DNA from: Patescibacteria group bacterium
Lineage (GTDB): Bacteria > Patescibacteriota > Patescibacteriia > SBBC01 > CAIJZX01
NCBI GenBank assembly: GCA_038065275.1
Contig: JBBTRH010000012.1
Span: 14,374-78,373 of the forward strand
Reading direction: 5' to 3'
Length of the DNA: 64,000 nt
The first letter of the stretch is position 1. The number at the start of each line of letters is the position of its first letter. Of the stretch, positions 19,727 to 63,480 are shown in pieces. A program made the translations under genes and the position numbers. Below the pieces are notes generated by a model. The model saw only the letters and a program-made list of their open reading frames with translations. It was not told where the DNA came from and made no database searches.

Positions 19727-20129
19727 TGGTGGAGATGGCGGGTCTTGCACCCGCGTGGCGACGAACTTCCCGCTGGTACTGTTCACATGCGTAGTCCGCT
19801 GTTGCGATACGTCACCACGTAGACAACGGACGAGAAACCGTGATGACGTTGTTCAGACAATACCGATTGCTAGGACTGAACGGTCTACCAATCGGTCCGA
19901 CTAAATGACACCCGCGATTCCCCAGCCGGAGTCAGGAGACGGATGCGCCGACGCGTTTAGGCGAAGGCGGGAACAAACGACGGGGTCGCGAAAGCGCGAG
20001 CTACCGCGGTCCGAAGTTTGCTGAGAAGTGTATTGGCACTTATCATGTCCGACATTTTTACGAAGTTGTCGGCGTTTCGGCATGGTACCGAGCAGGTTGT
20101 CAAACATCGTTCGACGATTGAACATCCCC
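19727..20129 (-). ncRNA. ssrA: candidate tmRNA (ssrA), ~403 nt
   Basis: 5' GGGGAUG pairs with 3' CAUCUCC; 3' end CGCGGG-UGCAAGA-CCCGCC-AUCUCC-ACCA parallels the E. coli GCGGGUUCAACUCCCGCCAGCUCCACCA; internal frame ..AVARAFATPSFVPAFA-UAA; smpB lies 2 kb away; the T-loop deviates from TTCRA. Confidence 0.45.
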
Positions 20130-24034: not shown

Positions 24035-24110
24035 GCGGACCGTACGGGAGTCGAACCCGTGGTCTCCTCCGTGACAGGGAGGCGTGTTAACCACTACACT
24101 AACGGTCCGC
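24035..24110 (-). tRNA. tRNA-Asp (anticodon GTC) with an atypical 9-bp acceptor helix (or a 2-nt bulge); no encoded CCA
   Basis: GCGGACCGT-TA-GTGT..ACAC-G-CCTCC-CTGTCAC-GGAGG-AGACC-ACGGG-TTCGACT-CCCGT-ACGGTCCGC-A; anticodon and T arms are close to E. coli tRNA-Asp. Confidence 0.7.
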
Positions 24111-61256: not shown

Positions 61257-61967
61257 CTAGGGCGAGGTCAGATCGATCTTCGGGGTCGAAAAACCGGTGG
61301 CTCGTGACAACGGCCAGGCCCGAAAAGCAGTCCGGCCGATGATATCCCGGCGGGTGACCGGACCGAAACTCCGCGAGTCAAGGCTGGCCGGCCGGTTGTC
61401 ACCCAGCACGAAGTACTGACCATCGCCGAGGGTCAAGTCAAGATTGCCGAAGGTGATGACGCTACCGGCCAAGTAGGTGCGCTCATCGAGGACGACGCCG
61501 GCGGGGTAGGCGGCGTTGGCGATAGTGATTTTACCGTCGTTGATCGTCAGCCGCTCACCCGGCAAGCCGATCAGCCGTTTGATCAAGAATTCGCCCAGCG
61601 ACGGGTTGCGAAGCACCACCACGTCTCCCCGTTGAGGCTGATGCAGGCGGTACGACAGTTCGTCGATGATCAGGTATTCATTATCGCGAAAGGTCGGTTC
61701 CATCGACGCCCCTTTGACGTAGAACGGCTGGAGAATGAACGTCCGGATGGGGACGATAATGGCCAGGGCGATGACCACGATTTTCACCAGCTCGACCAAG
61801 AAACCGCCGAACGAGCTGTTGAATGACGGCAGGAAATCCGACCGCTTGGCCGGCGCCGCTAATTTTTTAAAATTGGTCGACATCCCCCGGAATGATCGCG
61901 GGTCGCCGAGCGGGTTGGACGCGGGTGCGCTGTTTTTTGGTTTGGGGTTGGGTTTCGTGATAGGCAT
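61257..61967 (-). CDS. lepB: signal peptidase I
   Basis: SMEPTF (Ser box), KRLIGLPGE, GDNRPASLDSRSFG boxes. Confidence 0.8.
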   Translation of the reverse strand: MPITKPNPKPKNSAPASNPLGDPRSFRGMSTNFKKLAAPAKRSDFLPSFNSSFGGFLVELVKIVVIALAIIVPIRTFILQPFYVKGASMEPTFRDNEYLIIDELSYRLHQPQRGDVVVLRNPSLGEFLIKRLIGLPGERLTINDGKITIANAAYPAGVVLDERTYLAGSVITFGNLDLTLGDGQYFVLGDNRPASLDSRSFGPVTRRDIIGRTAFRAWPLSRATGFSTPKIDLTSP

Positions 61968-61989
61968 GAAGAATAGAAGTCGAAATAAT

Positions 61990-62345
61990 GTTTCTTGGCG
62001 GCCTAACTCCGCTGCACCATCTATCCACTGGTGGTCGCACCCCGCAGAACACTCACTTTGTTCGTGTCTACGGGGCAGGCCTGGGCTCGAACCAGGGACC
62101 TTACGGATGTGACGGCGCGCTCCCCGGCCCGCTTCGCCTGCGGTTAAAATTAGTAAATAGTTTCTGGTGGGGATGAGAGGATTCGGACCTCTGACCTTTC
62201 CGACCCCGCTGGTGGTCGCACCTGGGCTCGAACCAGGGACCTTACGGATGTGAACCGTACGCTCTGACCAACTGAGTCCCGACGTTCCGTGCGACGGAAG
62301 TCGGGATCCCGACTCTCGCTTAGCGAGACGTCGGGACTACTGTCA
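61990..62345 (-). other. three tandem tRNA-like modules ending ..ACCA (T-arm GGTTCGAGCCC/GGTCCGAATCC plus acceptor 3' strand), one with a TTCACAT anticodon-like loop; none folds into a canonical cloverleaf
   Basis: minus strand: ..GUACGG-UUCACAU-CCGUA-AGGUC-CCUGG-UUCGAGC-CCAGG-GUGCGACCACCA; mini GGGGUCGGAAAGGUCAGAGGUCCGAAUCCUCUCAUCCCCACCA; third copy has a 40-nt hairpin between T-arm and 3' acceptor. Confidence 0.45.
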
Positions 62346-62580
62346 ATAATGAGTTTAATTACTTTTCGACTCTTTTTCGTTTTAAGGGCCCGTTCTCTTT
62401 TCCGAGCCTCCGACAACGTTGGATACCGTTCTACTCGCACCAGCTTCCAGGGTCGATAGGGCTTCGTGGAAAAACTCTTTCCAGTGTTATGCTCGCGTAG
62501 CCTCTTTCGTACATTACCGGTCGTACCAATGTAGTAGCGTCCATTCTTCTCACTCTCTAGGAAATATACGTGCCACATTA
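62150..62580 (-). CDS. GIY-YIG nuclease-domain protein (~85-aa domain; C-terminal extension overlaps the tRNA-like modules and may not be real)
   Basis: MWHVYFLESEKNGRYYIGTTGNVRKRLREHN...EARKRERALK is a canonical GIY-YIG motif; no Shine-Dalgarno seen; stop position uncertain. Confidence 0.5.
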
Positions 62581-62608
62581 TACAGGAGGGTTTACATTTT
62601 AGCCTTAT

Positions 62609-62685
62609 TGGTGGCCACTGCTGGATTCGGACCAGCGACCTCACCGATGTGAACGGTGCGCTCTAACCGACTGAGCTAAGTGGCC
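62609..62685 (-). tRNA. tRNA-Val (anticodon CAC) with encoded CCA
   Basis: GGCCACT-TA-GCTCAGTCGGTTAGAGC-G-CACCG-TTCACAT-CGGTG-AGGTC-GCTGG-TCCGAAT-CCAGC-AGTGGCC-A-CCA; all stems are Watson-Crick paired. Confidence 0.85.
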
Positions 62686-62763
62686 GTGGCGGGCAGGTAT
62701 GTCCGGCGCTTTCACTGAGGCGACCAGAAACCGCTAAAATAACGCCAGAATAGCCACAGGATA

Positions 62764-63480
62764 TCACCTTTTTCCATTCGATGCAAGGGTGCGGCGTCGG
62801 GCGAGTTGCCAAGCCAGCCGGACATCCTCGGCCGCAATCCGCCAGGAAAATTTCGACCGGCCGCCGCGGCGCTCGCGGAAAATCAGCGGGACTTCGCCGA
62901 TCCGGCCTCGCCGGCGCCGGGCCAACCAGGTCATCTCCATTAACCAGGCGTAGCCGACGCCGGTCATTGGTTCAGACATCACCTGCCGCAGAAAATCAGC
63001 TCGCCAGCCCTTGTATCCCGTACTCCAGTCGCGCACCGTCCATCCGAGCAGGGACCGGATGTAGATATTGCCCAGGGTGCTGACCCAGCGACGATACCAG
63101 ACGATCGGGAATCGGCCGCCGCGCACGTAGCGTGAAGCCAACACCAGGTCGAGATCGCGCAAGCGTTCCAGGAGCACCGGGATAAGAGCCGGATCGTGGG
63201 ACCCGTCGGCGTCCATTTGCACCACCAACGTCGCTCCCTGCCGAAGCGCGTATCGAAATCCGTCCCGGTAGGCCGATCCCAGCCCGAGCTTGCCGGCCCG
63301 ATGGAGGACGTGGAGGTGGGTGTCTTGAACCTGGAGTCGGTCAGCGATACGACCGGTTCCGTCCGGCGAGTTGTCGTCGACAATCAGCAACTCAGCTGTC
63401 GTCCGCCGACGAATGTCGCGGAGGAGCGCCTCCAGGTTTTCCGCTTCGTTGTAGGTGGGCAGGACGATCCAGGTCGACAT
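62764..63480 (-). CDS. GT2 glycosyltransferase, polyprenol-phosphate mannose/glucose synthase (DPM1-like)
   Basis: VLPTYNEAENL, VDDNSPDGT, MDADGSHDP motifs. Confidence 0.85.
   Translation of the reverse strand: MSTWIVLPTYNEAENLEALLRDIRRRTTAELLIVDDNSPDGTGRIADRLQVQDTHLHVLHRAGKLGLGSAYRDGFRYALRQGATLVVQMDADGSHDPALIPVLLERLRDLDLVLASRYVRGGRFPIVWYRRWVSTLGNIYIRSLLGWTVRDWSTGYKGWRADFLRQVMSEPMTGVGYAWLMEMTWLARRRRGRIGEVPLIFRERRGGRSKFSWRIAAEDVRLAWQLARRRTLASNGKR

Follow-up and report, generated by a model that had tools for sequence, protein, structure and literature searches.

In work by Paquin, Laforest and Lang from 1994 and 2000, the mitochondrial DNA (mtDNA) of Allomyces is said to contain "double hairpin elements", and a GIY-YIG open reading frame (ORF) is reportedly associated with the atp6 gene of Allomyces macrogynus. 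Such mobile endonuclease ORFs of organelles are reported to bring a partial copy of their target gene with them and to oust the resident portion. Phage T4 carries the gene of a free-standing GIY-YIG homing endonuclease, SegB, in its tRNA gene cluster (PMC2330249). Group I introns occur in the tRNAs of Patescibacteria, and the endonucleases described with them are of the HNH and not of the GIY-YIG type. Together with REPINs and a paper on tRNA gene fragments, SegB and these introns are the nearest literature to the arrangement described here, which was found in a stretch of 64,000 nucleotides (nt), hereafter called the window, from a Patescibacteria group bacterium (assembly GCA_038065275.1, contig JBBTRH010000012.1, positions 14,374 to 78,373). 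It consists of an intact tRNA-Val(CAC) gene followed by a small GIY-YIG nuclease gene, two tandem hairpins and three incomplete tRNA-like modules. Full-text searches found no published description of the arrangement, although most subscription journals lie outside their coverage and a prior description is possible.

In our view, a miniature, mobile and selfish nuclease cassette probably occupies the tRNA-Val(CAC) gene at this locus, and the modules are probably tRNA debris. The cassette consists of a short spacer, a gene of ~80-104 codons for a GIY-YIG nuclease of the SLX1/UPF0213 type, and a double hairpin fused to a truncated tRNA copy. Direct support comes from the anatomy of the locus, from empty sites in relatives, from incongruent tRNA alleles, from a cassette at the same site elsewhere, and from the association of nuclease genes with tRNA genes, partial tRNA duplicates and hairpins.

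Anatomy of the tRNA-Val locus

All features of the cluster lie on the minus strand, in a 796-nt interval between a glycosyltransferase gene (63480..62764) and lepB (61967..61257). Read along that strand, the order is tRNA-Val(CAC), spacer, GIY-YIG ORF, two tandem hairpins, and the modules psiVal2, Mod2 and Mod3 (Table 1). The GIY-YIG gene is the only domain-bearing ORF in the interval. The tRNA, which the original prediction had described as clean, is recognized as such by both ARAGORN and Rfam; it has a complete cloverleaf with a paired 7-bp acceptor stem and is the sole functional tRNA of the cluster. Its 3' end at the cassette spacer reads CCACCAA, and empty sites and fragments mostly read CCACCAG. 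GC content is 45-50% in the ORF and cassette versus 60-65% in the flanking genes and the genome, a contrast that suggests a foreign composition. The architecture recurs in independent assemblies and contains direct repeats, and so it is not a product of chance.

Table 1. Positions of the features of the tRNA-Val locus (window coordinates) and of the tandem array of Cyclobacterium xiamenense ac3
Feature	Position	Strand	Basis or remark
Intact tRNA-Val(CAC), "Val1" allele, acceptor GGCCACT/AGTGGCC	62609..62685	-	ARAGORN; Rfam tRNA 67.7 bits
Spacer from tRNA to ORF, 30 nt, part of the cassette	62579..62608	-	Homologous to L084 cassette spacer (alignment A4)
GIY-YIG ORF, 142 amino acids (aa); catalytic domain 62578..62366	62150..62578	-	Pfam PF01541
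Double hairpin, 60 nt, joined to tRNA position 10/11	62277..62336	-	DNA fold
hp1, TCCCGAC[GTCTCGC-TAA-GCGAGA]GTCGGGA	62336..62307	-	Nested inner hairpin
hp2, TCCCGAC[TTCCG-TCGCA-CGGAA-C]GTCGGGA	62306..62277	-	Nested inner hairpin
psiVal2 (unit 1), positions 11-76 + CCA of "Val2" tRNA-Val(CAC)	62210..62276	-	Rfam, own model
CAG codon where related cassettes and the intact allele have TAG (D-loop GGT-TAG-AGC)	62264..62266	-	Comparison with L087, L083
Mod2 (unit 2), positions 38-76 + CCA of a third tRNA-Val-like allele	62165..62203	-	Repeat family D3
Mod3 part 1, positions 33-65 of the Val2 allele	62080..62112	-	Repeat family D1
40-nt hairpin, CCTG CCCCGTAGACAC - 11 nt - GTGTTCTGCGGGG, at position 65/66 of Mod3	62040..62079	-	Fold
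Mod3 part 2, 3' acceptor TGCGACC + ACCA (TGCGACCACCA)	62029..62039	-	Repeat family D4
ac3 tandem array	L026:1900-2993; NZ_CP159481.1 ~249.8-250.9 kb		

The nuclease ORF had been proposed to start at 62580 and to run without a stop until 62150. The end is correct (stop codon at 62152..62150), and the ATG is at 62578. Residues 1-71 match Pfam PF01541 with 61.2 bits against a cut-off of 22.6 (E 1.2e-16), and Y5, Y16-I-G18, R26, H30 and E62 are invariant in the alignments (A1 and A5). A score above the curated cut-off together with the GIY, YIG, Arg and Glu motifs places the protein in the GIY-YIG nuclease superfamily. An NCBI protein from a metagenome-assembled genome labelled "Patescibacteria group bacterium" is 100% identical to the ORF product. 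Homologues are 80-104 aa long, and the last ~60 codons of the window ORF pass through hairpins and tRNA fragments. Comparison of related loci indicates that in this sub-lineage the ORF normally crosses the hairpins and stops at the D-loop TAG of the truncated tRNA copy. The intact allele of L083 reads GGTTAGAGC where the window reads GGTCAGAGC. Thus, the read-through to 62150 results from a single T-to-C change that turned the D-loop TAG of psiVal2 into CAG.

Which branch of the superfamily does the protein belong to? The best matches to solved structures (phmmer against PDB) were UPF0213 proteins (1zg2, 3e-6; 1ywl, 8e-6), namely BH0048 and EF2693, followed by SLX1 (7wme, 6e-5). SLX1 acts with SLX4 on branched DNA in eukaryotes. 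These closest relatives and the single small domain assign the protein to the SLX1/UPF0213 (YhbQ-like) branch. The model of group I intron endonucleases (TIGR01453) scored only 17.2 bits against a cut-off of 56, so the protein does not group with the I-TevI/Seg type. No DNA-binding domain was found in the window protein, which has no room for one. Matches in PHROGs were limited to the N-terminal motif, and among known anti-phage defence families (PADLOC) there was no full-length match, only ~35-residue motif matches to PDC-S14 and UzuA. The protein is thus a bare catalytic domain of the structure-specific branch, because UPF0213 and SLX1 match best, the intron model stays below its cut-off, and the PADLOC and PHROGs matches cover the motif alone. 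The family name "homing endonuclease", which had been suggested for it, does not apply to a minimal domain of this kind.

The catalytic domain is followed by a 60-nt double hairpin, which the original prediction had misread as a 10-nt insert before the D-arm of unit 1. It folds with -26.7 kcal/mol (z -7.55; DNA parameters), and no shuffled sequence equalled this value. Only one hairpin pair is present within the window. A double hairpin is found at the equivalent tRNA position in L084, L088 and L087, with varying inner stems. An alternative reading of unit 1 as a 6-bp acceptor plus a 12-nt insert was rejected, as its GTCGCA sits in the loop of hp2 and is not conserved in L084 or L087. Two short motifs were also observed. 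GTAG directly precedes the first hairpin in the window (62337-62340, minus strand) and in L087 (317-320), as it does in GTAG-tagged REP elements. The hairpin half-site contains TCNGA, and Hpy188I, a GIY-YIG restriction enzyme, recognizes this sequence. Both occurrences may be coincidence.

The three modules had been described as units that each end in ACCA and have an incomplete 5' half. This description holds, and the units are pieces of tRNA-Val truncated at the 5' end. psiVal2 extends from the D-arm through ACCA with a TTCACAT loop and scores 32.4 bits with the Rfam tRNA model (cut-off 29) and 43.5 bits with a purpose-built tRNA model, but positions 1-10 are missing. ARAGORN, the tRNA predictor proposed as a check, resolves none of the modules as an ordinary tRNA; it is silent on psiVal2 because the 5' acceptor strand is missing. 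A 6-nt linker, GCGGGG, separates psiVal2 from Mod2, which lacks positions 1-37; behind it stands a duplicated native 3' flank (CCAG AAAC.ATTT). The Mod2 segment TCGGAAAGGTC matches L079 and L080, and L083 and L081 have a fragment at the equivalent position. A tmRNA-like reading of Mod2 was also considered and rejected (Rfam matches at E = 3). Mod3 lacks positions 1-32, and its first part is 100% identical to psiVal2 over 33 nt.

The two parts of Mod3 are separated by a hairpin that had been predicted between T-arm and acceptor and that is indeed exactly 40 nt long. It is also present, with 2 substitutions, in L081 (96% LepB identity) and is absent from the intact L083 allele. Its arms (CCCCGTAGA.../...TCTgCGGGG) are similar to the inverted repeats around the GIY-YIG ORFs of L010 and L024, a likeness that was noticed post hoc and is only suggestive.

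Are the modules parts of working tRNAs? A 5' half that would complete psiVal2 (GGTCGCATAGCTCAG) had no meaningful match in the 64-kb window with up to 3 mismatches. Neither group I introns nor any other Rfam intron family matched at E up to 10 in 61800-62900, and covariance models found no intron family at E up to 0.1 in 20 related loci. The earlier suggestion of permuted or split tRNAs therefore fails: the window offers no complementary 5' half, the pieces differ and decay among close relatives, and an intact tRNA-Val(CAC) is present. The three modules are most likely non-functional debris, namely a Val2 gene cut at 10/11 and two older 3' fragments cut at 37/38 and 32/33.

The window also holds a standard tmRNA (19727-20129, minus strand; Rfam 81.9 bits) and a tRNA-Asp(GTC) (24035-24108, minus strand). 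No tRNA fragments, hairpins of this kind or nuclease gene were seen near either of them.

Related sites and the wider nuclease family

Homologues of LepB place the host near Candidatus Kerfeldbacteria, in the candidate phyla radiation. The synteny glycosyltransferase - lepB - hisS is kept in relatives at 74-81% LepB identity. In L077, L078 and L079, ~170 nt separate the glycosyltransferase gene from lepB, and this space contains a single tRNA-Val(CAC) and no nuclease gene; the window has ~620 nt of extra DNA. The site is also empty in L083 and apparently in L082 and L086, and it is occupied in the window and in L084, L085 and L088. In other words, related genomes are polymorphic for the presence of the cassette at one site, as mobile elements are. 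The alignment to relatives that had been proposed as a check thus finds intact alleles, as a single gene, at the same site. The proposal of tRNA genes disrupted by a GIY-YIG element is right in substance, given these intact alleles and a homologous cassette elsewhere at the site, and unsupported in its assignment of the nuclease to the homing-endonuclease family.

The homologous cassette at this site is seen in L084, whose LepB is 80% identical to that of the window. The L084 sequence recurs in L085 and L088/L089, which are NCBI and JGI assemblies made independently, and L084, L085 and L088 therefore represent three independent assemblies with the cassette. Upstream of lepB, L084 contains at least two copies of a unit made of GGTCGCATAG, a double hairpin, CTCAGTTGGTTAGAGCGTTCCGTTCACAT and 17 nt. 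These are followed by an intact tRNA-Val(CAC), a 27-nt spacer, an 88-aa GIY-YIG ORF, a double hairpin and a copy of tRNA positions 47-76. The spacer, the ORF (71% identical) and the hairpins align with those of the window. Hairpin 1 is almost identical, and hairpin 2 keeps its outer stem with an inner stem that is different but paired. In the 5' copies, the double hairpin is simply inserted between G10 and C11, which is the point where hairpin and psiVal2 meet in the window. L084 has an extra 26 nt relative to the window, and these provide the stop codon of its ORF.

A cassette of the same kind is found in L087, in the order tRNA-Val(GAC), spacer, ORF, AACAGTAG, double hairpin, and a copy of tRNA-Val(TAC) that begins at position 11 and carries a further hairpin in its T-loop. 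The ORF is 75% identical to that of the window; it crosses both hairpins and ends at the D-loop TAG (GGT TAG AGC), giving a protein of 104 aa.

The tRNA alleles at the site do not follow the genes around them. A Val1-type allele (GGCCACT.../AGTGGCC) is present in L077, L078 and L082, and a Val2-type allele (GGTCGCA.../TGCGACC) in L079, L080, L086 and L083. The Val1 gene of the window is identical to the L077 tRNA-Val at 76/77 positions and to that of L078 at 74/77. psiVal2 matches the intact tRNA-Val of L083 at 66/68 positions, whereas Val1 and psiVal2 share only 53/68. Allele type is incongruent with HisS, LepB and glycosyltransferase identity: L079, L080 and L082 are equally close to the window (HisS 84-86%) yet differ in allele, and L083 is the most distant (HisS 78%, glycosyltransferase 56%) but has a near-identical Val2. 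The upstream flank of the window resembles L077, and its lepB-proximal flank resembles L083 and L079. From the flanks and the alleles, it follows that the locus is mosaic, with parts from two lineages that meet at the nuclease cassette. This suggests that tRNA alleles are horizontally exchanged between related genomes of the candidate phyla radiation.

The debris itself varies between relatives. In L083, an intact Val2 bracketed by an inverted repeat (CCTGCTCG / CGAGCAGG) lies inside an older, decayed Val1-like copy split at 37/38. In L081, a Val2-like piece with the 40-nt hairpin at 65/66 is followed by a CGGGG linker and a decayed Val1-type fragment from position 38, and the sequence next to lepB is unlike that of the window. 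These differences indicate that the site turns over quickly. Breakpoints lie mainly in the anticodon loop (32/33, 37/38, 38/39), and the hairpins lie at 10/11 and 65/66. An intact tRNA nested in an older copy, with inverted repeats of 8-14 nt, was observed for tRNA-Val in L083 (2240-2440; older copy broken at 37/38), tRNA-Ala-TGC in L087 (786-1010; ~23/24) and tRNA-Met in L006 (2088-2269; 35/36), with no nuclease gene between the pieces. Five contigs from relatives begin inside tRNA-Val, either in the acceptor and D-arm region (L080, L082, L085, L086) or in the anticodon arm (L081), which suggests that the repeats of the locus often break short-read assemblies.

Is the association of nuclease and tRNA general? 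A word-indexed protein search had returned four proteins, two of which had no tRNA neighbour, and the link appeared weak; scans of genomes and metagenomes corrected this picture. In the first scan, one genome per species was searched with a GIY-YIG alignment. It gave 63 loci, with a same-strand tRNA adjoining the ORF in 14-15 of them, and eight of the ten loci that resemble the window most were among these. Several had partial copies of the neighbouring tRNA that were 100% identical and interrupted by a palindrome. In the second scan, metagenomes were searched with patterns of the window's subfamily, which gave 80 loci (79 distinct records, as one was counted twice). A tRNA on the same strand was present within 300 nt in 69 of the 79, and one on the opposite strand in five; the density of tRNAs in distant parts of the loci would predict ~9%. 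Partial duplicates of the neighbouring tRNA occurred in 48 of the 80 loci and were mostly 100% identical. They were found by comparing each intact tRNA with its own locus (blastn-short), as a purpose-built tRNA covariance model and an nhmmer profile missed most of the hairpin-interrupted copies.

The hairpin is also shared. The motif TCCCGAY…RTCGGGA, with CCGAY/RTCGG stems, is present in 41 loci, often in place of the anticodon arm of the copy. Its density is 1.73/kb in the ORF flanks versus 0.14/kb elsewhere, a 12-fold enrichment. This count replaced one of generic perfect 7-bp hairpins near the 63 ORFs of the first set, which had given a 1.4-fold excess with one repeat-rich locus dominating the background. 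Rfam has no family for the hairpin-bearing pseudo-tRNA.

Two layouts recur. In type A, a tRNA copy of positions 1-26, the hairpin TCCCGAT-NNNN-ATCGGGA instead of the anticodon arm, and positions 44-~54 are followed by the ORF and then by the intact tRNA. In type B, which includes the window, L084 and L087, the intact tRNA comes first and the ORF is followed by a partial copy that runs from ~18, 44 or 47 to 76, often with a hairpin. The original suggestion of "minihelices as recombination targets" is therefore partly right only, in that the segments duplicated across the family are often the T-arm with the 3' acceptor (44/47-76) or positions 1-26. In 21 loci (including L093, L096, L101, L110, L114, L119, L134 and L136-L138), the ORF reads through the acceptor strand of the tRNA and ends at T8-A9-G10. 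Since the stop codon is then inside the tRNA, RNase P cleavage of a co-transcript would remove it.

The targeted tRNAs include those for Ala, Gly, Ser, Thr, Asp, Ile, Val, Leu, Pro, Arg, Asn and Met. Near-identical elements occupy different sites, with proteins that are 80-90% identical beside different tRNA species, and one metagenome-assembled genome contains two copies (L040 and L043). Thus, near-identical elements occur in several copies and at different insertion sites, as expected of mobile DNA. In the complete genome of the cultured bacterium Cyclobacterium xiamenense ac3, at least four tandem 337-nt units end in an intact tRNA-Arg(CCT). Each unit consists of tRNA-Arg(CCT) positions 1-9, a 20-nt palindrome (CCTGCCTACCGGCAGGCAGG), positions 10-26, a second palindrome, positions 27-36 and an 81-aa GIY-YIG ORF. 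The family comprises 750 clusters at 50% identity (E up to 1e-10). Many database members (P0125-P0274) have 20-40 extra N-terminal residues or two nuclease domains, probably because gene callers crossed pseudo-tRNA and hairpin DNA or tandem units.

Several loci differ in their surroundings. The cassette was also observed at the spacer tRNAs of rRNA operons, tRNA-Ala-TGC and tRNA-Ile-GAT (L130:1-1624, L092, L099, L091, L123); L130 begins with the 3' part of 16S rRNA, and L099 has five tandem copies of tRNA positions 45-77. In L162 (168-353) and L164 (193-377), a pair of tRNA-Asn genes lies beside a truncated GIY-YIG ORF with partial copies downstream. One tRNA-Asn of the pair is 83-84 nt long, and ARAGORN assigns it a 4-nt anticodon in L164. 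Among more distant GIY-YIG relatives that have no tRNA beside them, an inverted repeat of 14-23 nt flanks the ORF on both sides (scores of 12-20 versus control maxima of 7-10; L029, L016, L010, L024, L037, L039, L030, L018, L035, L050, L052, L045, L006). The left arm often includes the ATG of the ORF, and the right arm touches the ATG of the next host gene.

Possible routes of entry and alternative explanations

How could the cassette enter a tRNA gene? The nuclease would cut the DNA of a tRNA gene or hairpin at loops or domain junctions, and repair or recombination would use tRNA-identical segments or hairpin copies as homology. As a result, the cassette would be installed together with an intact tRNA while pieces of the resident gene are displaced, and each entry would leave one intact tRNA and one altered partial copy. 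The window arrangement could be derived by recombination of the hairpin after the ORF with a hairpin at 10/11 of a Val2 copy, both kinds of which are present in L084. Three routes can be envisaged. Breaks made by the nuclease may be repaired from a cassette-bearing allele, that is, by homing with incomplete conversion. Alternatively, a small, possibly circular unit may integrate by homology through its tRNA-identical segments, and the 337-nt head-to-tail array would fit this route. Finally, widely staggered cuts may be filled in.

What might the nuclease recognize? The conserved stem is independent of its loop, whose content varies between 3 and ~30 nt and can include a nested hairpin. Such independence suggests that the stem is recognized in hairpin or cruciform form, which would suit an SLX1-like enzyme. 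Insertion into hairpin loops may be a common theme, because inverted repeats bracket both the ORFs of distant relatives and whole tRNAs (L083, L087, L006).

Several observations weigh against a selfish nuclease cassette. An 80-aa GIY-YIG domain has no obvious means of sequence recognition, and its role in cleavage is a prediction. If the target lies within the tRNA, the intact neighbouring copy would still be cleavable, which a simple homing model leaves unexplained. The first 10 nt of Val2 were found nowhere, so the exact event is not reconstructable. No inverted repeat was found to bracket the window ORF (score 6, as in controls). Fragments bracketed by inverted repeats also occur at loci without a nearby nuclease gene (L083 and the tRNA-Ala of L087), and the nuclease may thus act in trans or not be the agent at all. 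Covariation in the hairpins (100% pairing, three covarying pairs) is biased, as the hairpins were picked by a pattern that requires a hairpin, and it was not relied on. Finally, the data come from metagenome assemblies.

It is possible, although on balance doubtful, that these loci represent an undescribed class of mobile elements of 0.3-0.4 kb whose only gene encodes an SLX1-like structure-specific nuclease and which insert into hairpin loops and domain junctions. Such a class would be widespread, with members in Bacteroidota and further phyla as well as in the candidate phyla radiation. Its natural targets would be tRNA genes, at their D-, anticodon- and T-arms, and the elements' own palindromes, and tRNA-identical segments would serve as portable homology, so that any tRNA gene could be invaded and one functional copy would always be regenerated. 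A still bolder possibility is that the nuclease is guided to the cognate tRNA gene by an RNA partner, namely the pseudo-tRNA with its hairpin.

Among the alternatives to a selfish cassette, an unlikely one that nevertheless survives best is a module that serves the host or acts at the RNA level, such as a tRNA-mimic leader that controls the nuclease, a system for tRNA-gene repair or defence, or a tRNA-derived guide RNA. Conservation of the hairpin sequence across many tRNA contexts, its exact replacement of the anticodon arm, and the 100% identity of pseudo-tRNA segments to the adjacent tRNA could all be read in this way, and RNase P processing of a tRNA with an embedded ORF stop might leave a non-stop mRNA and thereby offer a point of control. 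A host function is hard to reconcile with patchy presence among close relatives, foreign composition, multiple copies, tandem arrays, and differing tRNA partners for near-identical proteins. The ORF also decays, having lost its stop in the window and being truncated in L025, L044, L046, L062 and L065, and no known defence family matches it beyond the GIY-YIG motif.

Scars of integrase-driven islands or prophages that repeatedly entered and left tRNA-Val, with the GIY-YIG gene as a passenger, are less probable still. Integration at tRNA genes classically leaves tandem 3' tRNA fragments beside an intact tRNA, and the modules fit this pattern and bear copies of the native 3' flank. However, the interval has no integrase and no room for one in its extra DNA, the breakpoints 10/11, 37/38 and 32/33 differ and share no common core as an island would require, and Val1 and psiVal2 have no long identical core in common. 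Its linkage to tRNAs in 69 of 79 loci, with the duplicates immediately next to the ORF, shows that the GIY-YIG gene is not a passenger.

A very improbable alternative is that the modules are functional non-canonical tRNAs, either split or permuted, or interrupted at 10/11 and 65/66 by hairpin "introns" that are cut out of the transcript. Archaeal tRNA introns sit at loops and domain junctions, as the insertions do here. In each module the T-arm is intact and the 3' acceptor strand and ACCA are present, and the 65/66 hairpin is conserved in the relative with 96% LepB identity. The lack of a 5' half in 64 kb, of an ARAGORN prediction and of a group I intron or other Rfam family speaks against function, as do the intact tRNA-Val(CAC) already present, the degenerate and different fragments at the equivalent place in L081 and L083, and family copies without any anticodon arm. 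We know of no bacterial enzyme that excises such hairpins. In favour, tRNA genes of the candidate phyla radiation do hold introns at 35/36 (PMC13011429). An assembly artefact that joined two strain variants into a chimeric contig is scarcely credible even though both allele types stand in tandem in a metagenome-assembled contig and related contigs break inside this tRNA (L080, L081, L082, L086), since the junctions run through ORF and hairpins and not from allele to allele and are found again in L087 and in three assemblies of one relative that were made independently. Dozens of unrelated contigs show the architecture as well, as does a cultured bacterium whose genome is complete.

Comparison with known systems

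The proposed cassette would belong to a known kind of element, the free-standing endonuclease gene that rescues its target by duplication. If the proposed selfish cassette is real, it would give a biological context to thousands of genes annotated as "GIY-YIG nuclease family protein" or UPF0213-like. It would also account for three kinds of annotation noise at bacterial tRNA genes, namely contigs that break inside tRNAs, tRNA fragments, and nuclease ORFs that are too long or extended at the N-terminus. It would add a third strategy for selfish DNA in essential tRNA genes, beside splicing and site-specific integration: the tRNA would be duplicated in part, and in the spare copy a hairpin would take the place of the anticodon arm. 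The mechanism is open to experiment, as Cyclobacterium xiamenense ac3, with its tandem array, is cultured and fully sequenced.

As in the case reported from Allomyces, a GIY-YIG ORF lies in an essential gene whose function is kept by a duplicated or foreign portion, the displaced portion becomes a pseudogene, and GC-rich double hairpins are present. The Allomyces target is a mitochondrial protein-coding gene, whereas many bacterial tRNA genes are targeted here; the hairpin sequence is conserved and often stands in place of the anticodon arm, and the nuclease belongs to the SLX1/UPF0213 branch. SegB offers another parallel, in that a nuclease gene lies among tRNA genes, is co-inherited with the flanking tRNA region and is absent from related genomes. 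Seg proteins, however, are larger and have a DNA-binding domain, unlike the bare 80-aa SLX1/UPF0213-type domain of the window. Furthermore, SegB loci lack partial tRNA duplicates and a conserved hairpin, and their context is a phage and not a bacterial chromosome.

The window protein resembles UPF0213 (YhbQ/BH0048/EF2693) in its small single domain, and UPF0213 and SLX1 are its best solved-structure matches; no tRNA linkage or mobility of UPF0213 or SLX1 is reported in the literature searched. REP and REPIN elements with their RAYT transposases (PMC3116915, PMC3733652) likewise combine short GC-rich palindromes, often paired, with one small enzyme gene, and the GTAG before the first hairpin in the window and L087 recalls the GTAG-tagged REP. 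The differences are that the enzyme is a GIY-YIG nuclease and not an HUH/Y1 transposase, that the hairpins lie inside tRNA copies and not in general extragenic space, and that the 64-kb window holds a single pair.

Islands and prophages with a tyrosine integrase share with the cassette a partial tRNA duplication that flanks the insert and an intact tRNA that is regenerated. Here, in contrast, there is no recombinase, the insert is 0.3-0.4 kb long, the copy is altered by a hairpin, and the duplicated part may be 5' (1-26 or 1-55) as well as 3'. The group I introns in tRNAs of Patescibacteria share the host group and a hot spot in the anticodon loop (breakpoints 32/33, 35/36, 37/38 and 38/39 here). 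Unlike these introns, the cassette has no ribozyme (no Rfam intron match), and the tRNA is rescued by duplication and not by splicing.

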